The notes under the pieces: model-generated
What the model saw: only the letters and a program-made list of their open reading frames with translations
The model's database searches: none
What the model was told of the DNA's origin: nothing
Shown here: one piece after another, positions 3,650 through 60,210 of the stretch
Numbering within the stretch: the first letter of the stretch is position 1
Layout of the letters: every line of letters starts with the position of its first letter
Made by a program: the position numbers and the translations under genes
Assembly (NCBI GenBank): GCA_030295235.1
Contig: AP026135.1
Location: forward strand, 1-64,000
Origin: Fistulifera solaris
Taxonomy: Eukaryota
Length of the DNA: 64,000 nt
Direction: 5' to 3'

Positions 3650-6600
3650 TTACACCCGGGTGGTGTTCGTTTGCCCCATAACAGCTTGAACAGAGTCCAT
3701 CAATGCTTGTCCTTCAAAAAGAATTCTTTGACTTCTATTTCGAACGGGAACCTTTAAAGCGTCACCCTGAATATCAATGCAATCAGATTTCTGGACGCGG
3801 AGACCGTTGGTACCTAAAATGGCATCGAGTTCCGGAATGGCAGGCAATTCGACCATCACATCGTCGCCCATAACCTTGATTGGAAAGGTCAAAATTTTGA
3901 GGTCACCACCGAGCTCCTCGCCGTTTTCTAATGCAAAATTCTTCTTGTGCAATGGACATGCGACCTTCGGAGTTCCAGCGTTGTCGCCGATGATGCCTTG
4001 AGACAAGACGAAAGCCTGCTTGTGCGGACACATATTTTGAGTGCAGTACCATTCACCTCGGGCCACGTTATTGAAGACGGCCAATTGCGTTTCTCCTACT
4101 AGAATAGGTGTCCCAACATTTGGTCCGAAGTTGGACACCTTGCCGACGATAATCCAACTTTTCTCAGACTTTGCAAACACATCATCAGTTGGAGCACGCC
4201 ACATCGTTTGGGCCTGTCCATCTTTCGGCCAATCTGTCGGGCGCTTCTGGCCTCGCATGTCGACGAACTCAATCATGTGCTCTTTATCAATCGTCTTATC
4301 GGTGTTCGCGAACTGCTTGAACTTGGCGCGACGAGCTGGGTCCTTTACTACTTCGGCCTGCCGTACGATAGTAATGTTTGAGTTCTGGTTTTAGCGCGTG
4401 TCGAAGAAAAGTAAAACGACAACCATTTGACTTACCCACTCATCATGATAGGTGTCGACCAAATGCTTCATTCTGGCGTCAAGTTCCGCACATACTCCTA
4501 GCGAGTCGTCAATGATGACATCGCGCAAATGTCCAATAACAGTTCCGTCCTTTCCCTTTGGTAGCTTTTGCTGCCAAAAAGCCGTGCGCTCCAGACGATC
4601 AGCTGTCAGAATGTAATACATGATGTATCGGTCCAAATAGAGCAACACGGTGTCTTCGTCGATATCTGTAGCAAGCAGTTGTGCATGAACAGGAACTGAA
4701 CCTCCGTTACCGCCAACATACAAGTTATAGCCGTTTTCTGTGGCAATCATACCAAAATCTTTAGATTGCGCTTCTGCACACTCACGGACACAGCCTGACA
4801 CTGCACTCTTCATTTTGTGGGGAGATCGAATGCCCTTGTAGCGGTTCTCTACTCGCACCGCGAAACTTACGGCATCTTGCACTCCGTAGCGGCACCACGT
4901 TGACCCGACACACGATTTGACCGTACGCAGCGCCTTCCCGTAAGCGTGTCCCGACTCAAAGCCAGCCTCGCCCAACTCTTCCCAGATATCCGGCAGTTCA
5001 TGCTTGGCCGCTCCAAACAAATCAACACGTTGTCCTCCTGTAATCTTGGTGTAAAGATTGTATTTATTGGCCACCACACCCAATGCAATCAACTGATCAG
5101 GGGTTAGCTCGCCACCAGCCACGCGAGGAACGACGGAATATGACCCACCCCGTTGCATATTCGCTAGGGCCCGGTCATTTGTATCTTGAAGTGCTTCATT
5201 GTCGTCGATAATGACATCATTGACAAGCGAAGCCAAGATCGAACCCACAGTCGGTTTGCATATCTCACAACCGTCACCGCTTCCGTGTTTGTGCAAAATC
5301 TTTTCGAACGAATCAACGCTAGTAATATCCGGAGCTGTGCGGATCAAAGCCATCAGTTCTGGGCGACTGTAAGCGAAATGTTCACAAAGGTGATTAGAGA
5401 GACTACCACCAAGTTTTTCAAGCTCTGAGGCTAATACGGCTTTCACTTGGGACTCGCATCCTCCGCATCCAGTTCCAGCGCGAGAGCACTTTTTCACATT
5501 GGCGTATGTAGCCTCTTGAACACCGAGCTCTTGAACGACGGATGCAATCGCACCTCGGGTAACATCGTTACAGGAACAGATCTGAGTGTTGGGGTCGTCG
5601 CTTATGCTTTCTTCTTCCATTCCACTCTCTCCACGAGCCGAAGGTGGTGCGAGTAGGACAGCACCGGGCAGGTCGAGTTCTTTGTCGCCGGGCACAGCGA
5701 GCTTATGCAAACGGTCGTAATCGCCGGCATCGCCCACCAGAATTCCACCACGCAACTTTGTGCCGGCCTTGTTGAAAATCAATTTTCGATAAATGCCAGA
5801 AATAGGATCATTCCAGACCATCTCGCTAACATCCTGGTCATCCGGTCGGGGCTGGTTGACACCAAAGGAAGCCACATCGCAGCCGAGCAACTTAAGTTTT
5901 GTCGACATGTCGGCTCCAGTAAATTCTGGCAGTGCATCGCGAAAGACGCCCCAGTCGGCAGCAATACACTTGGCAGCGACATCCGCCATAACGTATCCCG
6001 GAGCAATCAAGCCGTAGATGAAATTATTGTAAAGAGCAATCTCGCCGATGGCATACACGTCTTCCACGCTTGTTTTCATGAAGTTATCGACGACTATGCC
6101 CCCTCGCTCGCCAATCGCTATGTTGGAACCGTCAGCTCGGGCCAAGTCGTCACGTGGTTTGATACCTGCCGAGATGATGACCATTTGAACCTCCAAATTG
6201 TCCCAGTTTTCATTACTAAAGCGCAGCGCTGCGACTGGACTTGTGCTTTCCATATCTGTCGACCCATCTTGACCGACAATCGACTCGGTGCGTGCACCAC
6301 AGTGAACCTTGAGACCCATTTCTTCGATCTTTCCCACTAAAGCATTGTGACCGCCTTGATCGATCTGTCGACACATGAGGATGTCCGCGAACTCGATAAT
6401 ATGCGATTCGAGACCCATGTCTTTGGCGGCTTTGGCAGCTTCCAATCCGAGCAAGCCTCCTCCGATGACGGCCGCCTTTTTCACGTTGTTGTCAGCGACA
6501 TACTTGAGCATGCTCTCCAAATCTTCGATAGTGCGGTAAACAAACACACCGGGTCGCTGCTTGCCGGGAATCGGAGGAACAAAAGGAAACGATCCTGTTG

Positions 6601-7045
6601 CCAAGACGAGTTTGTCGTAGGGGATCGTCCGACCGGATACTCCGGTCACCGTTTTGGATGCTGTGTCAACCGCGATAGCTTTATCATTCAAGTATAGCTC
6701 CACATTGTTTTCTTTGTACCAAGTCGTGCGTCCGTCTTCTTGAAATTCGCTCGTCATGCTCAAATCCGATGGATTTCTTGTTTCCAAAAAAGGATGTGAG
6801 TTTGACTCGATTGTAGGCGGCTCGTGGCTCCTCGCAAAAAGTACTCAATTGCACCGAAGGATCCAGTTTGAGGATATTTTCCATAAAACGCTGTCCGACC
6901 ATGCCGTTGCCAACCACAACGACGCGTTTCCCCGGACTGTCACTTTCGGATGCCATCGACAACGACAAGAACGATTTCTTCGTCGAATGAATGCCGACAA
7001 AGCAGTAGTGCTGCCTAGCAGCAAAAAGGACACGAAGGTTTTCAT
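3650..7045 (-). CDS. nirB: NAD(P)H-dependent nitrite reductase, NirB large subunit fused to NirD-like Rieske domain, with signal-peptide/plastid-type presequence
   Basis: FAD site VVVGNGMVG, NAD(P)H site IGGGLLGLEAA, BFD 2Fe-2S CSC...GTGCGGC, siroheme/4Fe-4S KSCVGSTWC and SGCVRECA, Rieske CPH...CPLH. GT-AG intron 4358..4435 restores DEW|AEVVKDP. Start MKTFVSFLLLGSTTALSAF at 7045; 1-nt frameshifts near 6985 and 6790. Confidence 0.93.
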
Positions 7046-9175
7046 CGTGCAATTTTTATTCTTAAAAGGTTTATTACAACAAAGGAGAATAGGATTGTTT
7101 TGTTGTTAAAGATGAAAAGAAAACGAGATGATGGAGGAAAGGTATCTTCGGATTGGCCATTTGCCATTATTTTTCTTCCTTCTTCCCCTTCCGCTTCCTT
7201 CATGCTTCCGGAGGATATTCGGAATTCGGCATACTCTTTAGTCTATATTGCGAACAGAAGGACATCTGGCTGAATACCGAATAATCGATTTCCCAAGCAC
7301 AAGTAATGTGTGGAAAGTGCCCGCACTTTCTGCACGTGAAAACAAACGGAAGCATTCTTCGAACGAGGACGATTTGGAGCGAAGAAAACCTCGGGAACTT
7401 TCGTGCGTACAGGACACAGGACGGTTTGGCGTAGCCAAAAGCCAAATACTCCTTTGCGTCGGTACTGGTAGTCAAAACCCTCTGAGAAACCGTTACGACT
7501 GTTTGTAATATGGAGAATTACGGTTACGAGGTTAAGGGTACCCGGTACCCGTACGGAGTCAGAGCATTGAATTGAGAATGAGTCAGGCTAGGTATTCATG
7601 GGTCATGGCAGTGGGCGAGGCTCTCGTTGCACTCTAGACGACTTACAGTTATTTACTTCAAATAGTGACATCACGAACAAGAGAAATATCCCAATGGTTT
7701 CCAAGTCCTGACTTTGTACCAGAAGTATCTATGTTTCATCCCTCATTCCAATCAAAGTGTTTAAAGTCTGTTTGCCATGAATAAAGGTTATGTGTTGTAT
7801 TTGGCTGCATAAGAGGGGTCGTTACTGTTCATTTCTTTTGCTCTCTTTCATGCAAACTAGATTGCATGAGTCGTCTTATCAAGTACATGAGAGAAAGTAA
7901 GGGGCGCGCCGTAAGGCGAAGAAAAATTGGTTAAAAGCACGCTTTAGCTTAAAAATCACAGGAAAAGATGGAGTTGTTAATCCTATCAAAGTTTGGTAAT
8001 GATTAACTTTTGGAAGGATGAACTTTTGCAATGAAAACTATGGGGAGGTGGGAAAAAGGCGAGGGAACGTAAAATGTGAAGTCGCGATTTGCTTGGAGGG
8101 AAAATCAAAAACTTACACAACGGAAACACAAGCCTCGCCTCGCCTCGCCGCCCGCCCACGCAACTCGGGATCCAGTCACACCTAACCGGGTCTTATTTGT
8201 ACCACCTTCAAAGATTTTTCAATACCTCAATACTGGTATTATACCGTATGGTATTGCGGTATTCTAGAGCCCGTTGAACTATAACTAAATACTAAATCCA
8301 ATCCAGATTTAGACGCTCAGACATTTCTGGCAAGGCACTTTCACTTTTATCAACGTTTCTCATTATTATTTTTTGGAAGAGAGTAATAATTAATAATGGT
8401 ACGAACTGCCATGGTTGCTTTATTACGGAGTACAAAAAAACCGGTTGGTCCAGTGACCAGTGACCAGCGACCAGTGTGACCTTAAACCTTCAAGCTTCAA
8501 GCTCAAGTCGTAAGTCGTTGACCGTCGGCCTTTGGCATTAGCAATTGTGTACTAGGGTGTATTTTGGTGAGGGTTTTGAAATTTTCGTATTAACGTGTTC
8601 AAAGAAGGCCCAAAAGAATTCAAAAGGCTGTCTCAAATCTCAAAGCTTTAAACCATCTTTGGAGCGGTAGAGCGTCAGTCACACGGTAAAGGTAACACGT
8701 CAGCTTGATCAGTAATCGTGGTTCGTCGTCGATTGTGCTTCTTGTCGATCCATTTTGTCGTTCGTCGTCCTTAATGTGTTACGTGAACTACATTTACCAG
8801 GTAGCATCAAGAATCAAGATAGGGCACGTGGCATGGATTTCGGGTTTCGGGCTACATACAATTTAAGGTACATGACCCGAGGCCGAGACTTGCGTTCGTC
8901 GAATTCGAACAGAGAACAGAGTGACTAGTGATACCTTGACTATAGCCTACAAAGTAATCTCACTTTCGACTTTGGGTGCCTTTTGACTTTTGACTCTCTC
9001 AGAATGACCGTCAGCGACGCCCAATTACAAATTTCCAATTGACAAGGACGTACCTATTTGGCAACCTCACAAAACCTTTCGAACGTGAAACTACATCGAA
9101 CAACTGCAATCATGTTAGGCTGGATGAACGATTGTCTTGAGAAGCTCGTTGTTGAGAAATTCGGGATCGATGCGC

Positions 9176-37897: not shown

Positions 37898-38917
37898 AAT
37901 TATATTCTATAGAATACAGTATCATCAGCTCACGATTCTACGCCCCTTTTTTATCTTTATTACGGAGTAGATGTCACATGCCACTCATTAAAATATCTTG
38001 CTTCGGTTCTGCCGAACTCGTGACTTTTTGACGCGGGACGGATGTCAGACACGCTTTCATCACTCGCCCTCACTATGCTCGGATCTCGAATGACATTCTC
38101 TTTCTTGTTGTTTGATGTTTGATGGCTGATGATTGATGATGAACGTTTATGAATGATTCGAGCGCAAACGCAGGTAAAAGCGGAGAGGTGGTGGTTGTGC
38201 ACTGTTTCTACCGTCAACACTATTGTATCAACATTGTTGTGGGGTATGAGGGACTGAGGATTGTACGATAATTTCACTTCAATCGAGCAAGTTCAACTAG
38301 AAAAGCGGAACGCAGAAACGAAAGCACAGCAAAGTTCAAGATGGGAGATTTAGCATGGATTTTACCTACAATCATTCCTATTTCGGTGTCTTGCGTCTGA
38401 TAAAAGATGTACTAAAAGATAAATGACCATTTGTTGCTGAATAATTCTCGGAAGCTCTTGCCGCTTCCTATTTCACTTAGGTCCAGTTACCGTTTACCGT
38501 AATACGAAATACGAATAGGGAAGTCTGGAGTTAGAGTACCAGGTACCTGATACACTTGACTCCTAACTAACTCCCAACTTTTTTCCTAACTTGAATCTGC
38601 GCTTGGCACTGTGCGCTGGCAGTTGGCAATCAGCAATCCAAGTTTAATTATTTAGTGCGCCGTATAAAGTACACCTTTCTGTGCTTTTAGAATACCAAAC
38701 TGTCCCTCTCGACTTTTCTATGCGTCACGTACATCATCGGCTGAATACAACGGCGGGAGAAGCGAGAGGCGGCTCGGAACGCAGAACGCTCGCAAGTTCG
38801 CTCTCCGCAAGAAGGCTTATCAATGCAGTCCAAAGGTGCCTTGAAAGGTGTGCCTTGCTCATCAATCGGACAATCATTTCATCCAATTTATCTTGTAATA
38901 TAATACTGCACGCAACA

Positions 38918-40669
38918 ATGAGACACGACGACTTACTTATCACACTAGCTTACTTCTCCATCCCGATACAGCTGCTCATCTCGCTGTATTATTATCCGCT
39001 GTTGAAAGTTACCCCCAAACGATTCCTCGCGCTGATTGTGCTTTTTGCCTTATTCATTATGCTTTGTGGCGTGGGTCACTTGCTTCGAGCGTTCGGAAAA
39101 CACGGCGACGGCTTTGAACTCTTGAACGGCTTAACAGCAGCCATCAGCGTGACGACTGCTCTTTATTTGATTCCTATGATTCCTAATATCATGGCTACGA
39201 TCGAAAATGCGCTCGCTGAATTGAAAATGAAAGAAGAACTAGAAGAAATCAAGAACCGAAAGCTGATGACTTTCATAGGTTTCTTGTGTCATGAAGTTCG
39301 CAACCCGCTCTTTGCGATTACAAGCAGCATTGCATTTATGAAAGAAGGAGGCAACGAGAGTGATCGTGTCAATTGTCTTTGCTCGATTGAGCAAAGCGCG
39401 AATCTCATGCTACGATTAGTGAATGATGTGCTTGATATTAGCAAGCTCGAGTCGGGGAAAGTCGAGCTGGAGTTGAAAGGATTTAATGTTCTGGATCTGT
39501 TGAATGGGATATCCGCGTCTATCCAGACGCAAGTTCGCCATATGCGAGGCGCTACGGTGACTTTCACTTCTCATATAGGAGAAAATGTACCAGCAGTCAT
39601 CGAAACAGACCCCGCTCGGCTGCTTCAGATTGTATACAACTTGCTCTCGAACGCTTCCAAGTTCACTGAGAAAGGGAAGATTGATTTCATGGTAGATGTG
39701 GTACGCTATGATGAGGCTTTTGGAGATGATTCGCATACGGATGAATCATCACTGAGACGCTTACTGACAGGCGATGAGCCCGATTTTTCGGTGCAGTTGC
39801 TAGCGAGCGATGATCAAGCGTTCGTCTCCGGAAATCGTTCGGACCAACATGTTCTCAAAATCGTGGTAGCAGATACTGGGTGCGGAATCGCTCCCGATCG
39901 AATCAATGATATCTTTCGACCTTTCAATCAATCCAAAGTGTCAGATTTTAGAAAGTTCGGAGGGACTGGTCTGGGTCTAAGCATCATTGCGCAACTTACA
40001 AAGGTGATGTCAGGAAGGATTCAAGTCGATTCGAAAGAGAACGAAGGATCGATTTTCACTGTTTATTTACCCGTGCTAATCCCCACAACTCTCCAAGCAC
40101 CTCCGATGCTAGATACCGAATCAATACTACATGACTCCATCAAGAACAGTCGCTTACCGCCTATGCTCATAAATGAAGGCAGCATAGAATTTGAAGATGT
40201 AGTTGGACACGAGGCAGCATCTGCCATGGCAATTGCACCGCCTTCCGTCCGTGACATTGATGAGCTCGGAATTCTACCAAAGAAAAGTAGGGTTTTAGTT
40301 GTTGACGACAACACCGTGAATCGGAAAATTCTAGGACGAATGTTGGCGAGCTTCCAACTGGAGGTAGAGTTTGCTACAAATGGACAGGAAGCGGTGGATA
40401 TTCTCACAAGTGTACCTGGTTTTGGATTGGTATTGATGGACTTGGATATGCCTGTGTTAGATGGTATATCTGCAACCCGAGTGATTCGGCGAGACTTGGG
40501 TTTGACAGATCTGCCCATCATTGCCCTGACGGCATTTGCGGTCCAAACACAAGCGACGGACGCCCTGGATGCCGGGGTGACAGAATTTGCGACAAAACCT
40601 ATTCTCAAAGAGGACTTGCGACAGAAGTGCTGTCGGTATTTATTGAATAGGACAGACGAGATCGTCTAA
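38918..40669 (+). CDS. Ethylene-receptor-like hybrid histidine kinase 1 (3-TM ethylene-binding domain, HisKA, HATPase, REC)
   Basis: DDLLITLAYFSIP...FIMLCGVGHL...LTAAISVTTALYL.P.IP aligns by eye with the ETR1 ethylene-binding domain; H-box LCHEVRNPL, N-box NLLSNASKFT, G1 DTGCGI, G2 GGTGLGL, receiver VVDDN/LMD/KP; ATG placed at 38918 by comparison with the paralog. Confidence 0.9.
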   Translation: MRHDDLLITLAYFSIPIQLLISLYYYPLLKVTPKRFLALIVLFALFIMLCGVGHLLRAFGKHGDGFELLNGLTAAISVTTALYLIPMIPNIMATIENALAELKMKEELEEIKNRKLMTFIGFLCHEVRNPLFAITSSIAFMKEGGNESDRVNCLCSIEQSANLMLRLVNDVLDISKLESGKVELELKGFNVLDLLNGISASIQTQVRHMRGATVTFTSHIGENVPAVIETDPARLLQIVYNLLSNASKFTEKGKIDFMVDVVRYDEAFGDDSHTDESSLRRLLTGDEPDFSVQLLASDDQAFVSGNRSDQHVLKIVVADTGCGIAPDRINDIFRPFNQSKVSDFRKFGGTGLGLSIIAQLTKVMSGRIQVDSKENEGSIFTVYLPVLIPTTLQAPPMLDTESILHDSIKNSRLPPMLINEGSIEFEDVVGHEAASAMAIAPPSVRDIDELGILPKKSRVLVVDDNTVNRKILGRMLASFQLEVEFATNGQEAVDILTSVPGFGLVLMDLDMPVLDGISATRVIRRDLGLTDLPIIALTAFAVQTQATDALDAGVTEFATKPILKEDLRQKCCRYLLNRTDEIV

Positions 40670-42063: not shown

Positions 42064-43809
42064 ATGAGACACGATGACTTACTAATCACATTGGCGTATT
42101 TTTCTATCCCGATACAGATTTTGATTTCTTTGTATTACTATCCGCTGTTAAATGCTACGCCGATACGATTCTTGGCCCTTTTCGTGTTGTTCGCCCTTTT
42201 CATTCTGCTGTGTGGGATAGGGCATCTATTCCGAGCCCTTGGAATACATGGCGATGAATTCGAGCTCTTGAATGGTTTAACGGCCGCAGTCAGTGTCATT
42301 ACCGCACTTTATTTGATTCCCATGATACCCAATATCATGTATACGATTAAAACGGCGTTAGACGATATCATTCTACAAGAAGAATTAAACAAGAATCGAA
42401 AACTAATGGCTTTCATGGGCTTCTTGTGTCACGAAATACGTAATCCGCTCTTTGCGATAACGAGCAGTATTGCCTTTATGAAAGAAGGAGGCAACGAAAA
42501 GGATCGTATCAACTACATTTATGCGATCGAGCAAAGCGCTAATCTCATGCTGCGATTAGTAAACGATGTTCTCGATATTAGCAAGCTCGAATCAGGCAAG
42601 GTTGAGTTAGAAAGGAAAACCTTCAATGTTCTGGATCTTCTGAATGGTATATCAGCTTCCATCCAGTCTCAAGTTCGTCATATGCGAGGGGCTGCAGTTG
42701 CTTTCAATGCTAAAATCAGCCAGAACGTTCCAACTGTCATCGAGGCGGACCCCGCACGACTTCTTCAAATTATTTACAACCTACTATCGAATGCCAGCAA
42801 GTTTACCGAACAAGGAAAAATTGACTTTAAGGTGGATTTAATAGCTTACGAGGATGCTTTCGGAGACGATCCTTCCACCGAGAGCGGTGGACGGCGTTCC
42901 TTGCAGGACGATGAAGCGGATTATTCGGCACGTTTGCTGGAAAGAGATGACTCAGTATCAAAGTCGGCGTATAGACCAGAGCAACATGTCCTCAAAATTG
43001 TGGTTGCAGATACTGGTTGTGGAATCGCGCCAGATCGTATCGTCGACATCTTTCGACCTTTCAACCAGTCCAAAGTCTCCGACTATCGCAAGCACGGAGG
43101 GACAGGTCTTGGTTTGAGCATTATCGCACAGCTGGTTAAAGTCATGGCTGGAAGAATTCAGGTCGACTCGAAAGAAGAAGAAGGATCGACTTTTACGGTT
43201 TACCTACCTGTCTGTTTACCTTCTGCCCTGACAACATCCTCTGCTCTTGATACCGATTCGATCTTGAACGACTCGATTAAGAACAGGCGTTTACCGCCTA
43301 TGCTTACAAACGAGAACAGAATAGATCGCTTTGACGACTCGGAGAACAGCAGCTCGGATTCACCACCGCCGATGTCGCGGCCTCAAACTGACGACGTGGA
43401 CGATTTTCGACATTTGCAGACTGATAGTAAGGTACTAGTGGTCGATGATAACACGGTGAATCGAAAGATTCTTGGACGAATGTTAACGAGTTTCCATCTG
43501 GAGATAGAATTTGCAACAAACGGTCAAGAGGCGGTTGATATTCTTGCCAGCAGATCCGGATTTGACTTAGTACTGATGGATTTGGATATGCCTGTCTTAG
43601 ATGGTATATCGGCAACCCGCATAATCCGGAAAGAACTCAGATTGACCGAGTTACCTGTAATTGCTCTGACAGCATATGCCGTCCAAACACAGGCCAAAGA
43701 GGCACTGGATGCAGGTGTGACGGAATTCGCTACAAAGCCCATCTTGAAGGAAGACTTGCGCCAAATGTGTAGCCGATATTTACTGAAGCGAACGCAGGAG
43801 ATAGTGTAG
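42064..43809 (+). CDS. Ethylene-receptor-like hybrid histidine kinase 2 (tandem paralog)
   Basis: Same architecture and motifs (DDLLITLAYFSIP, FILLCGIGHL, LCHEIRNPL, DTGCGI, GGTGLGL, VVDDN, LMD); intact 581-aa ORF. Confidence 0.92.
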   Translation: MRHDDLLITLAYFSIPIQILISLYYYPLLNATPIRFLALFVLFALFILLCGIGHLFRALGIHGDEFELLNGLTAAVSVITALYLIPMIPNIMYTIKTALDDIILQEELNKNRKLMAFMGFLCHEIRNPLFAITSSIAFMKEGGNEKDRINYIYAIEQSANLMLRLVNDVLDISKLESGKVELERKTFNVLDLLNGISASIQSQVRHMRGAAVAFNAKISQNVPTVIEADPARLLQIIYNLLSNASKFTEQGKIDFKVDLIAYEDAFGDDPSTESGGRRSLQDDEADYSARLLERDDSVSKSAYRPEQHVLKIVVADTGCGIAPDRIVDIFRPFNQSKVSDYRKHGGTGLGLSIIAQLVKVMAGRIQVDSKEEEGSTFTVYLPVCLPSALTTSSALDTDSILNDSIKNRRLPPMLTNENRIDRFDDSENSSSDSPPPMSRPQTDDVDDFRHLQTDSKVLVVDDNTVNRKILGRMLTSFHLEIEFATNGQEAVDILASRSGFDLVLMDLDMPVLDGISATRIIRKELRLTELPVIALTAYAVQTQAKEALDAGVTEFATKPILKEDLRQMCSRYLLKRTQEIV

Positions 43810-56648: not shown

Positions 56649-57325
56649 CCTGAATACTTCATCTTATTTTTTGCGACGCAATGACACGAAAATAAAAAAA
56701 AGTCGATGCATGCTGTCTCAAGACTGAATCCAGTCGCGGATCAGTGAGCCCACACTTGAAGCTATAGTGAATCATCGAGACCGGCAACATCCAAATCCAC
56801 TTTGGAAGAAAGCAAATCGAATCCAGTTTTCCATTTCTTAGGAAATTGTCCTTTCATGGCATAAGATTCTTCATCAAAGTCTAATTGTTAGGGCAAAACG
56901 TGAATTTACGCAACAATTGGATGTTCGTCTCATGACTGAAATCCAGTCTTGGGGCTGATCAGCAGAGGCGGACGTTTGAAGAAATAATCATTGACAAAAG
57001 CGGTGACAATAATCGGTGTCTCTTGATCATCTCGTATGCATCTTCAACATGCGCATCAATTCTTTGTTGTTTTGTTTTGCCTCCATGTTTGTCTTCAAAT
57101 TAATCAATAGCTCATGCCGGCGGATTCACTATAGTCTTAAAGTGTAGTCTGGTTTTCGTCAAGGGTTGCTTGGGTACCGGTAGGATAACTTGTGAAGCAC
57201 GTGCTTTGCGGGTTTCGTGCAAAACCGCAAATCTGCCAAACCGAAAAAAGCCGACAATAACCGCAAAGTCAATCGATGATGGATGAGATTCAACAATAAT
57301 TCCACAAAGAGTCACGAAAGCAACC

Positions 57326-59452
57326 ATGACAAGAACACCAACAGAAGCAGCAACGAAAGATCTACGTATAGCGTGTCTACTTCCGTCGGCCACGGACATT
57401 TGTGTTGCCTTGGGTTTATCGCAACAAATTGTCGGCATTACACACGAGTGTCACTTTCATTCTTCAGATTCGAATCAGAAAATACACATTTTGACGCGCG
57501 ATGGTTTGCAAGCCGCTGATAAGACACAAATGGAAATTCACGTGCGTGTTCAGGAACAGCAACAAATGTGTCGCATGCCGAAGGAAGATACGATTTCTTC
57601 GAAGGCGAGTGAAAGTGTGCCTTCATTGTATCCCATTGATGTGGATGCCTTGCGACAAGCAGCTCCGGATTTGATTATTACGCAAGACTTGTGTGCCGTA
57701 TGCGCTCCTTCCGTGTCCCAGGTTAAAGGATTATTGAGGGCAAACAATACCACACGAATACTTTCCCTTTCGCCGCAATCATTAAGCGATGTTTTGCAGA
57801 CCTTTGTTACTATCGCCACCGCCTGTGGTGTTCCAGAACGAGGGATTCAATTGCGCGATACGCTGCAACAGCAGTTGCATCAACTAAAATCAATCATTCA
57901 TTCCTTTCGTCGTCAACAGCCATCACCACGGTTACTGTTTTTGGAATGGTTAGATCCACCCTTTGATGCGGGCCATTGGATTTTGGATATGATGGAATAT
58001 GCCGGTCTTCAAAATGCGTTTGACAACAATCAACAGCGACCACGCAAATCAGGTGTCCGCTCATGGGATGCTATCACAAATACAACAAGTCCTGATGTGA
58101 TTCTTATTGCTTGCTGTGGTTTCGATGTCGAACGAAATGCCCAAGATGCTGTAACGCATTCGCATCATTTACAGCGGGTCATCGCGGCAAGTAGAAACGC
58201 CAATGCTCCCATTTATGCTACCAATGGTGATCGGTATTTTACATGTCCCGGTCCACAATTGGTTACGGTTGGGGTGGTCTTGCTGGCTATGGCTGCGTAC
58301 CGTCATGAGTATCCGGATATGATTGCCGCCATTCAAGCTTTGCCGTGGGTCCAAATGTGGCTGCCGGACGATTTGACGGAACATTATTTACGTCCTGTTA
58401 CGTTGTCGTCTTCACCAACGGTAGCGTCGCTTCGTACTGTAGACGAAACGAGGATTGCGGACATTGAAGATTGCCCAAACGCTGGCTGCGATGCTGGAAA
58501 AGACTGTGTGGACGACACCATGGGACATTCCGAACAGTTAGGCTGGGACAAATTACACGATGAAGCATGTCAAGCAAGACAGTTGACCTACACAGATCCT
58601 GATTCTGGTTATTCCGTCTTTACCGAATTGGCGCATCGACAGCGTGGCAAATGTTGTGGATCCGGATGTCGTCATTGCCCTTACCATCACATGAATGTAC
58701 GCGACAAGGCAACGAAAATCCAGCAGCCGGCTTGGCTGTTCTTACCAACCACTGTAGAAGAACATGACGTGTTTACATCGTTATCGCAAGCTCACAACAA
58801 TGTCCGAGTCCTCTTTTTCAGTGGAGGCAAGGATTCGTTCTTGACGATTCGTGCACTGGCACGTCAAGCCGCACGCTTCCCGTTGGTATTATTGACGACA
58901 TTTGATGCCACTTCCCGCGTGGTCGCACACCAAGAGGTGTCGATTCAGCAGATTCTTCGACAAGCACAACACCTCCAATTGCCTTTATTGGGCGTCCCAT
59001 TGCATCGTCATCATGCCAACTCCAATTCTCTGTCGTACGTACAACGCATTCAACAAGCATTGGCCGTTATTGAAGAACACGTGGCCAAAGTCACTGGTAC
59101 GACACCAGGTGATGCCATCCATGCTCTGGTATTTGGGGATTTGCATTTGGAACACATCCGCGATTGGCGCAAGGACCAACTGGGTGGATTGTACCGGATG
59201 GAATACCCTCTCTGGAAAGTGGATTACGCAACTTTGGCACAGGATTTGGAGCTCTCGAGTGTCCCGTGTATTGTGAGCAGTTCTACGGTGGATACAGTTC
59301 AAGTGGGTGAGCGCTATGATGCCTTGTTTCGCGAACGACTCAAAGCAGCGGGAGCGACCATCGATCTATTTGGTGAGAATGGTGAGTTTCACACGCTTGC
59401 TCAAGTCTGGGAAGTGGATTGGTGGGATGCTCTGGGTTACCAGTACTACTAG
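57326..59452 (+). CDS. Triple fusion: BtuF-like class III substrate-binding domain + DUF5522-like Cys motif + DUF71/Dph6-like PP-loop ATPase
   Basis: RIACLLPSATDI..ALG...VGITHEC, PDLIITQDLCAVCA, LEWLDPPF.AGHW, CGF, YF.CPGP; YTDPDSGYSVFT...RGKCCGSGCRHCPY; FSGGKDS, FGDLHLEHIRDWR, GENGEFHT; intact 708-aa ORF. Confidence 0.88.
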   Translation: MTRTPTEAATKDLRIACLLPSATDICVALGLSQQIVGITHECHFHSSDSNQKIHILTRDGLQAADKTQMEIHVRVQEQQQMCRMPKEDTISSKASESVPSLYPIDVDALRQAAPDLIITQDLCAVCAPSVSQVKGLLRANNTTRILSLSPQSLSDVLQTFVTIATACGVPERGIQLRDTLQQQLHQLKSIIHSFRRQQPSPRLLFLEWLDPPFDAGHWILDMMEYAGLQNAFDNNQQRPRKSGVRSWDAITNTTSPDVILIACCGFDVERNAQDAVTHSHHLQRVIAASRNANAPIYATNGDRYFTCPGPQLVTVGVVLLAMAAYRHEYPDMIAAIQALPWVQMWLPDDLTEHYLRPVTLSSSPTVASLRTVDETRIADIEDCPNAGCDAGKDCVDDTMGHSEQLGWDKLHDEACQARQLTYTDPDSGYSVFTELAHRQRGKCCGSGCRHCPYHHMNVRDKATKIQQPAWLFLPTTVEEHDVFTSLSQAHNNVRVLFFSGGKDSFLTIRALARQAARFPLVLLTTFDATSRVVAHQEVSIQQILRQAQHLQLPLLGVPLHRHHANSNSLSYVQRIQQALAVIEEHVAKVTGTTPGDAIHALVFGDLHLEHIRDWRKDQLGGLYRMEYPLWKVDYATLAQDLELSSVPCIVSSSTVDTVQVGERYDALFRERLKAAGATIDLFGENGEFHTLAQVWEVDWWDALGYQYY

Positions 59453-60210
59453 GAATAGGGTATCCATGAGGGAAGCGCCACGCTATTCTTTGACAGACTC
59501 ACAAGATAGTTTGCTTCGGCGTATATTAGCCGGTGCATAGGGCGAAGTTCAAAGCAAATCCCGTGTTCATCAGATTCTGTATCATAATCATATTTTATAA
59601 AAGAATTTCTTCCGTATTATATACTATCCTTACATATGAATTAATTATCATCTTCATTTGAGACGCAACTATTTGCAACGAAAAGCATCCGTATTGTCGA
59701 CTGCCATTTTCACTATGGTATTAAAGTGTAAGTTGTACGCGATTGCGACTAAATTTCAGTCAGTTGGAACGCCACCGAAGCAATGAGAGCACCAAAGTCG
59801 TTCACAAACAAAAGCGCGAAGTCTATAATCAAATGCCATGGAAATACCATTATATGAACTAACTGTCATCTTCATTTTTGAGACGCAACAATTTGCATTC
59901 GAACAATCGTTAGCCGAGATGAAGTCAGTCATGAATTTTGTCCGTTGGTGTTTTTGAATTTACCCAAGACTACTCTTTATACTATTGCCTAATTTCTAGT
60001 CGTATACCGATCGGCTCAGAATGCACTTAAAACTACAACGTGTTACGCTCTTTTTTGCAATGCAATGCAATGCATCGCAACGCAAGAAAGGCAACAGGTA
60101 CCGGTACCAGGTAACAAGCAGTTAGTTTACCGAAGATTAGTACATTGAGAGACTTGTAGTTTACTTCCTTTTATTCTGTCACCCCTCATCTAGTATCTTA
60201 TCTTGTTGCA

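Follow-up and report, generated by a model that had tools for sequence, protein, structure and literature searches.

A three-module diatom protein predicted to handle B12-like compounds inside the cell

The window analysed here is the whole 64,000-nucleotide stretch of Fistulifera solaris DNA that makes up positions 1 to 64,000 of the forward strand of contig AP026135.1 (assembly GCA_030295235.1). On its forward strand, at 57326..59452, lies a single intact, intronless open reading frame (ORF) of 708 codons plus a stop, with no internal stops in the ORF list or the translation. Its product joins a BtuF-like class III substrate-binding domain without a leader peptide (module 1), a four-cysteine DUF5522 module (module 2) and a DUF71 PP-loop ATP pyrophosphatase domain (module 3). 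The protein probably handles vitamin B12-like compounds inside the diatom cell and is predicted to be an enzyme. Its architecture, the subgroup signature of its DUF71 domain, the neighbourhood of its bacterial relatives and the control of relatives by cobalamin riboswitches are observed directly. The link between DUF71 and B12 is already known, having been in print since 2012; for the triple fusion in diatoms we found no earlier description.

Three modules in one gene

A first-pass annotation of this DNA had described one intact ORF of 708 amino acids composed of a class III binding domain, a metal motif and a PP-loop ATPase, and the ORF, Pfam, profile and fold evidence all agree with that description. 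The gene model is whole, since the 120 full-length homologues among the matches listed extend over 92-100% of its length. Two of the three Pfam families that the annotation had named score above their cut-offs: Peripla_BP_2 (PF01497; residues 15-291, E 1e-11, 45.2 bits against 27.5) and DUF5522 (PF17653; residues 410-457, E 4e-22, 78.4 bits against 25). The third, Diphthami_syn_2 (PF01902, DUF71; residues 496-691), falls slightly short at 22.8 bits against 23.2, a cut-off that relatives pass (e.g., 60.7 bits). The motifs quoted in the annotation were each found in place: CCGSGCRHCPY at residues 443-453, SGGKDS at 499-504 and GENGEFHT at 683-690.

The DUF71 identity of module 3 is secure despite the low Pfam score, because profile and fold searches both retrieve the same archaeal DUF71 structures. 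The profile of the C-terminal half matches 3rjz (E 7e-9) and 2d13 (E 2e-6), and the predicted structure of this half (mean predicted local distance difference test, pLDDT, 89.8) has 3rjz and 2d13 as its best Foldseek matches (E 1.8e-8 to 6e-7, template-modelling (TM) score 0.6-0.65), with no structural match over the DUF5522 part. De Crecy-Lagard et al. (2012; PMC3541065) describe a split of DUF71 into the diphthine-ammonia ligase Dph6 and a bacterial subgroup, 'DUF71-B12', which carries ENGEF/YH instead of EGGE/DxE188. Our profile alignment sets GenGefHtla of the window protein against GEGGEFETFV of PF0828; among the 120 listed full-length homologues, ExGE[FY]H occurs in 118 and EGG[ED]xE in none. 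The NCBIfam equivalog model for Dph6, TIGR03679, gives 19.5 bits against a cut-off of 197.3. Pfam finds none of the RidA/YjgF domains typical of eukaryotic Dph6, and the DUF71 domain is itself the C-terminal end of the protein. Judged by sequence, then, and in line with the first-pass annotation, the domain belongs to the B12-linked subgroup and not to Dph6, and the name 'Diphthine--ammonia ligase' attached to homologues in UniRef and JGI is misleading, since the Dph6 motif and the RidA domains are absent and the model score lies far below its cut-off. In a 47-row alignment the S, G, K, D and S of the PP-loop are invariant, as are the four cysteines and the R, H and P of the DUF5522 motif CCGSGCRHCPY (CCxxGCxxCP), and a family-specific block, FGDLHLEHIRxWR, is conserved in module 3. 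This block, together with the invariant His in place of Glu188, points to a substrate different from that of Dph6.

Module 1 is predicted to be cytosolic. Its conserved domain begins with a first strand at residue 13 (LRIACLLPSATD), leaving no space for a signal, transit or leader peptide; that no signal peptide was evident had been remarked on before. Stand-alone relatives (33-35% identity, 120 among the matches listed) share this property: most open with MRIVSLLPSATE at residue 1-2, and in 94 of the 120 the first conserved motif lies at most 12 residues from the start. The predicted structure (pLDDT 85.6, predicted TM score 0.84) finds its best Foldseek matches in the heme binders RhuT, BhuT and ShuT and in BtuF (target-normalised TM 0.68-0.79). 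A profile of the family matches 4m7o (E 5e-22) and the BtuF structure 5ysc (E 7e-22), then ShuT and the BtuF structure 1n4a, and gives far weaker matches to siderophore binders. The NCBIfam BtuF equivalog model is not reached (12.6 bits, cut-off 234). What sets the family apart is its cysteines. Q-x-x-C-x-x-C is present in 120 of 120 listed stand-alone relatives and in 120 of 120 listed full-length homologues, E41 is nearly invariant in the 45-row alignment of module 1, and two profile alignments show no cysteine in 4m7o or 5ysc at the positions of the family cysteines. Modules 1 and 2 together hold eight conserved cysteines. Going by the secondary structure of the model, those of module 1 would sit on loops that follow strands of both lobes, where class III binders contact their ligand. 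On profile and alignment evidence, module 1 belongs to a large family, leaderless and lined with cysteines, that derives from the heme/B12-binding (tetrapyrrole) branch of class III binding proteins. Positions of the modules and motifs are collected in Table 1.

Table 1. Features of the three-module gene in the window, and bacterial DUF6580 genes at their own loci
Feature	Positions	Strand	Evidence
Whole gene, three-module protein	57326..59452	+	ORF and translation; full-length homologues
Module 1, residues about 13-357, leaderless cysteine-lined BtuF-like class III binding domain (predicted)	57362..58396	+	PF01497, structural model, Foldseek, profile
Cys42 in T-H-E-C motif, invariant in module 1 family	57449..57451	+	45-row alignment
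Q120-D-L-C123-A-V-C126-A127 motif; Q, both Cys and A invariant	57683..57706	+	45-row alignment
L-E-W-L-D-P-P-F-D-A-G-H-W motif; W208, D210, P211, G216, W218 invariant, H217 nearly so	57938..57979	+	45-row alignment
Cys264 (A-C-C-G-F), nearly invariant	58115..58117	+	45-row alignment
Linker, residues about 365-400, predicted disordered	58418..58525	+	pLDDT <50 for residues 365-400
Module 2, DUF5522, residues 410-457; four-Cys CCGSGCRHCPY at 58652..58684	58553..58696	+	PF17653, 78.4 bits
Module 3, DUF71 PP-loop ATP pyrophosphatase domain, residues about 496-705	58811..59440	+	Pfam, profile, structural model, Foldseek
PP-loop S-G-G-K-D-S, residues 499-504	58820..58837	+	47-row alignment; aligns to PF0828 ATP-binding loop
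E-N-G-E-F-H, residues 684-689, DUF71-B12 signature; His where Dph6 has catalytic Glu188	59375..59392	+	profile alignment, PMC3541065
Possible poly(A) site, 25 bases past the stop codon	59477	+	contig end in A-run, runs X3 and X4
DUF6580 genes	L024 6538-7197, L029 6535-7197, L091 873-1532, L097 4885-5385, L099 4884-5387, L104 3507-4001		recurrent operon position

Relatives in bacteria and eukaryotes

The nearest shorter relatives among the matches listed are DUF5522+DUF71 proteins of about 270-290 amino acids with about 45% identity, encoded on genome-sized bacterial contigs. We fetched 79 bacterial loci, about 40 of which hold a full-length DUF5522-DUF71 copy, and used the first 400 residues of the diatom protein as a tblastn query against them. 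Ten of the 79 match, all on the same strand and directly upstream of DUF5522-DUF71, with the match ending 36 to 95 bases before that of the enzyme (28-31% identity, E 1e-28 to 1e-37); Pfam verified these pairs of binder and DUF5522-DUF71 genes. Pairwise fusions also exist, of the BtuF-like domain with DUF5522 (protein P0399 and an Atlas cluster of 54 members) and with DUF71 (a bacterial Atlas cluster of 61 members). The suggestion in the first-pass annotation that a bacterial gene cluster had been compressed into one gene is well borne out by these adjoining genes and partial fusions, and its preference for a corrinoid over a siderophore is likewise upheld by the nearest solved relatives of module 1, which bind heme or B12, and by the operons described below.

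At three loci (L024, L029 and L091) a cobalamin riboswitch immediately precedes an operon of DUF6580, a leaderless BtuF-like gene and DUF5522/DUF71. A second cobalamin riboswitch at L029 stands ahead of a receptor whose top-scoring assignment is to the TonB-dependent B12 receptors. In a sample of 121 genomes from a single bacterial order, that of genome G001, the leaderless binder is present in 15, and 8 of these 15 binder genes (7 of 14, plus G001) lie behind a same-strand cobalamin riboswitch together with a TonB-dependent receptor. The recurrent order is riboswitch, TonB receptor, DUF6580, leaderless binder; at L107 it is riboswitch, receptor, leaderless binder, leader-bearing BtuF, FecCD and ATP-binding cassette (ABC) ATPase. 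The leaderless binders of these riboswitch operons carry the family motifs, including L-E-W-L-D-P-P-F-D-A-G-H-W, and the canonical BtuF of L107 is without them. Besides G001, DUF71 occurs in only 4 of the 14 binder-bearing genomes, adjoining the binder or within 2 kb of it in 3. The cobalamin riboswitch is the sole regulatory RNA seen beside these bacterial genes, 11 times in all.

The gene for DUF6580, a small membrane protein, recurs in these operons with the leaderless BtuF-like gene on one side and the TonB receptor or riboswitch on the other (Table 1). The protein has no match among solved structures at E values up to 1, which gives no sign of kinship with BtuM, and none in NCBIfam, and we regard it as a candidate inner-membrane corrinoid carrier. 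At two further loci (L063 2782-3737 and L074 7207-8171) a stand-alone DUF5522 gene stands head to head with a DUF6580 gene, with about 150-300 bases between them; no riboswitch was found at these two pairs.

Other arrangements were seen among the bacterial loci. In four Gemmatimonadota loci (L010, L013, L014 and L017, about 4700-8007) a multicopper oxidase gene stops only a few bases from the start of another gene on the same strand; this is DUF5522-DUF71 in L010, L014 and L017, and in L013 the leaderless binder gene that precedes DUF5522-DUF71. L040 (7025-8228) holds an intact leaderless BtuF-like gene followed by a short DUF5522-DUF71 remnant (residues 201-276), which may be a decayed enzyme gene. 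Genome G002, which also contains L007, carries two classical DUF71 paralogues (L080 and L085, about 104 bits to PF01902) beside its DUF5522-DUF71 gene; no riboswitch was found within the short loci of these paralogues. Protein P0065 (980 amino acids) continues the triple fusion with a spermidine synthase domain and may be a merged gene model.

In eukaryotes, diatoms as a group conserve the three-module protein. The 120 listed full-length homologues all match at E < 1e-147, and their named sources, among the matches listed, are Fistulifera (85% identity), Mayamaea, Cylindrotheca, Nitzschia, Pseudo-nitzschia, Seminavis, Cyclotella, Stephanocyclus and Epithemia. One homologue bears the prefix Skav, which we take to denote a dinoflagellate gene model. 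A two-module form occurs in Chromera. Some short 'two-module' transcripts, e.g., that of Rhodella, open with the last part of module 1 and are perhaps truncated. Two mostly eukaryotic Atlas clusters, one of 220 members with diatoms commonest and one of 58 members with Oomycota commonest among the 9 of known phylum, are treated as leads only. In a quick tree of 70 rows, which holds no Dph6 rows, all 18 eukaryotic rows group together (Shimodaira-Hasegawa approximate likelihood ratio test 99) in a clade nested among bacterial DUF5522-DUF71 rows, with the DUF71-only Bacteroidota genes falling on the other side of those bacterial rows. The topology fits a single acquisition from bacteria.

Contigs from three runs of one study, whose kind is guessed and not recorded as RNA, span 57267-59616. 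In two of the runs a contig ends at 59477 with at least 21 A that are not in the genome, a hint of a polyadenylated transcript. That contig shows 18 differences from the window and so represents a near-identical second copy. Over 58873-59477, contigs of runs X2-X4 carry 9-18 differences over about 600-830 bases and other contigs are identical to the window; there is thus a second, near-identical copy, either an allele or a homeologue. A Fistulifera solaris protein has 85% identity. Contigs of X2-X4 leave the bins on either side of the gene uncovered, to which we attach no weight.

The rest of the 64-kb window contains ordinary eukaryotic genes, among which we sought and did not find a second B12 gene. 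Two tandem hybrid histidine kinases (38720-40669 and 42064-43809, forward strand) combine an ETR1_N (ethylene-receptor-type) N-terminal domain with a receiver domain. Among the bacterial loci, L017, from a Longimicrobiales genome, has 17 tRNA genes arrayed within 1.7 kb (425-2123).

Function and alternatives

The explanation we favour, which we judge about evenly poised between right and wrong, is that the protein is a cytosolic corrinoid-processing enzyme of the B12-linked DUF71 lineage, of bacterial origin, that would form AMP and ligate an amide, its chemistry being read by analogy. What module 1 binds, what the protein catalyses and what its cysteines do are inferred as follows. Module 1 would hold a corrinoid in the cytosol, perhaps through a cobalt-bound thiolate as in BtuM. 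Module 3, if it works like Dph6, would activate a free carboxylate on the bound substrate as its adenylate, converting ATP to AMP and pyrophosphate (PPi), and a nitrogen nucleophile (an amine) would then attack the adenylate to give an amide. Module 2, with its four cysteines, may bind a metal and couple modules 1 and 3. The role would be salvage or repair of imported corrinoids, whether by re-amidation of deamidated or incompletely amidated corrinoids or by re-ligation at the f side chain in lower-ligand remodelling.

Complex prediction of module 1 against modules 2 and 3 scored 0.40 (best control 0.01), with contacts that agree by at least 84% between runs and a partner pLDDT of at least 78. 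Of 78 solved complexes, 51 reach the mark used, as do 2 of 108 mismatched pairs. These counts are for microbes, and alignments were left unused; scores of 0.60 or under comprise 5 of the 78 solved complexes against all 4 passing mismatches (of 180). The prediction weakly supports a contact between module 1 and modules 2 and 3.

Several points weigh against the amide-ligase explanation. Since cobalamin in its complete form lacks a free carboxylate, a precursor, a deamidated or damaged form, or cobyric acid made in the course of remodelling would have to serve as substrate. The binder does not need the enzyme, because in the order sample DUF5522-DUF71 is found in only 1 of 121 genomes compared with 15 for the binder, and 10 of the 15 binder-bearing genomes are without any DUF71; the binder is thus the general part and the DUF5522-DUF71 enzyme an accessory. 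A cobalamin riboswitch was found at only 3 of 26 scanned DUF5522-DUF71 loci, leaving 23 without, and most bacterial DUF5522-DUF71 genes lie amid unrelated neighbours (a multicopper oxidase, an aminotransferase fusion, peptidases). Heme binders head the Foldseek list for module 1, on which BtuF ranks 14th, and a heme ligand and a B12 ligand are not separable by the predicted fold. The names given to relatives of the leaderless BtuF-like family, both automatic, conflict ('iron complex transport system substrate-binding protein' in JGI, 'cobalamin-binding protein' in NCBI). Lastly, the many conserved cysteines would also fit sulfur-transfer PP-loop enzymes, which stand lower in the fold list.

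Other explanations were weighed as well. In one, the protein accepts or chaperones B12 in the cytosol: it would work on the ligand of the cobalt (by decyanation, dealkylation or hand-over to methionine synthase) and use its ATPase for loading or release, with no amide formed. BtuM provides a precedent for ligation of cobalt by a cysteine combined with decyanation (PMC6072759), module 1 is lined with cysteines, and a binder far commoner than the enzyme, mostly in genomes without DUF71, is what this proposal would lead one to expect. We nevertheless think it unlikely, as the PP-loop and the entire DUF71 catalytic core are invariant, which favours an adenylating reaction over a mechanical ATPase. 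PP-loop enzymes release AMP and PPi and are not known as motors, which counts further against a chaperone.

A low probability likewise attaches to the idea that the ligand is heme, another tetrapyrrole or a cysteine-held metal ion, the B12 context of some bacterial relatives being a special case. The ranking of the heme binders, the annotation of 4m7o as iron-binding, a weak NCBIfam match to TroA-like metal receptors and the 23 loci without a riboswitch speak for it. Against these stand the bacterial neighbourhoods: no heme or iron uptake context was seen at the examined loci, where the cobalamin riboswitch is the only regulatory RNA found, and the receptor adjoining the L029 operon scores best for B12. 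In the published survey of DUF71-B12, moreover, 75 of 102 genes adjoin B12 transporters (PMC3541065).

De Crecy-Lagard et al. proposed that DUF71-B12 replaces CbiZ, in which case the diatom protein would remove the lower-ligand loop of pseudocobalamin, or serve another salvage route, with cobalamin then being rebuilt. That paper describes DUF71-B12 as strictly anti-correlated with bacterial CbiZ and co-occurring with CbiB (PMC3541065). According to the preprint of Vancaester et al. (10.1101/2020.01.24.918219), F. solaris and P. tricornutum are without CbiZ+CbiB and the other late genes, and a 2026 preprint notes the same remodelling gap in P. tricornutum. An ATP-dependent PP-loop ligase would be odd for amide hydrolysis, however, a point raised by a reviewer of the 2012 paper, and we rate such a replacement as quite improbable.

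A sulfur-inserting role akin to that of the PP-loop enzymes TtuA, NcsA or LarE, with an iron-sulfur cluster or persulfide carried by DUF5522 and the cysteine-lined domain, is very improbable. The eight conserved cysteines would suit such an enzyme, and Foldseek lists TtuA, NcsA, LarE and ThiI at E about 1e-3, but those matches reflect the generic PP-loop fold, with a target-normalised TM of about 0.3 compared with 0.6-0.65 for the specific DUF71 match, and sulfur-relay genes were not seen in the examined neighbourhoods. That the gene encodes the diatom's Dph6, as the database names of homologues and the common PP-loop and overall DUF71 fold might suggest, is scarcely credible, being contradicted by the motif with His for Glu188, by the TIGR03679 score, by the RidA domains that Pfam does not find, and by closest relatives in bacteria, which are without diphthamide (PMC3541065).

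Significance and comparison with known systems

B12 supply limits many phytoplankton, and the intracellular uptake, sorting and remodelling of B12 forms in algae are poorly known; the 2026 preprint still notes missing enzymes. Databases misname the diatom protein after an unrelated translation-factor enzyme. We tentatively suggest that diatoms and other algae have an overlooked cytosolic B12 step, in which a thiolate-lined BtuF-like domain captures imported corrinoids and the fused PP-loop ligase repairs or completes them. If this suggestion is true, a wider pool of the B12-like compounds in seawater would be usable by algae. The fusion also brings DUF71-B12, DUF5522 and the leaderless BtuF-like family, none of them characterised, into one testable unit. 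As a soluble single chain, it is a protein with which the reaction of the DUF71-B12 family as a whole, open since 2012, could be found.

We found no published description of a BtuF-like+DUF5522+DUF71 fusion, no literature on DUF5522, and none that joins diphthine, cobalamin and diatoms. Judged by the titles listed, no characterisation of DUF71-B12 since 2013 was found. Neither diatoms nor the triple fusion came up in the 2012 paper (PMC3541065) and two of its supplements. The main text of the Vancaester et al. preprint makes no mention of the triple-fusion family, which its supplements may list among horizontally transferred genes.

That preprint describes late cobalamin genes of bacterial origin in diatoms (CobN, CobA, CobQ, CbiZ+CbiB and CobU; 10.1101/2020.01.24.918219), and the triple fusion resembles them as a bacterial-type B12 gene in diatom nuclei. 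In contrast to them, it is present in Fistulifera solaris, which is reported there with none of these late genes. With Dph6 (yeast YLR143w, P. furiosus PF0828, PDB 3rjz) the window protein shares the DUF71 fold and the ATP-binding loop, and probably, by analogy, an adenylate-forming chemistry. It differs in having His for the catalytic Glu188, no RidA domains and the FGDLHLEHIRxWR block on the substrate side, and its profile match is weak (38 bits). Module 1 resembles the BtuF of BtuCD-F (PDB 1n4a, 5ysc) in its Peripla_BP_2 membership and its two-lobe class III fold (target-normalised TM 0.73-0.76). Unlike BtuF, it is leaderless and predicted to be cytosolic, it is not paired with BtuCD in diatoms, and it carries the invariant Cys42, Cys123 and Cys126 and the nearly invariant Cys264, which are absent from the aligned solved binders. 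BtuM, a membrane protein that binds and decyanates B12, holds it through a cysteine on the cobalt (PMC6072759). The cysteine as cobalt ligand is a possible analogy only, as BtuM has another fold and no sequence relation to module 1. A further close system is the DUF71-B12 subgroup itself (de Crecy-Lagard et al. 2012; PMC3541065), with which the window protein has in common SGGKDS, ENGEF/YH, a bacterial affinity and B12 uptake genes and riboswitches near some relatives, and to which it adds an N-terminal DUF5522 module of four cysteines and, in eukaryotes, a fused leaderless BtuF-like domain.

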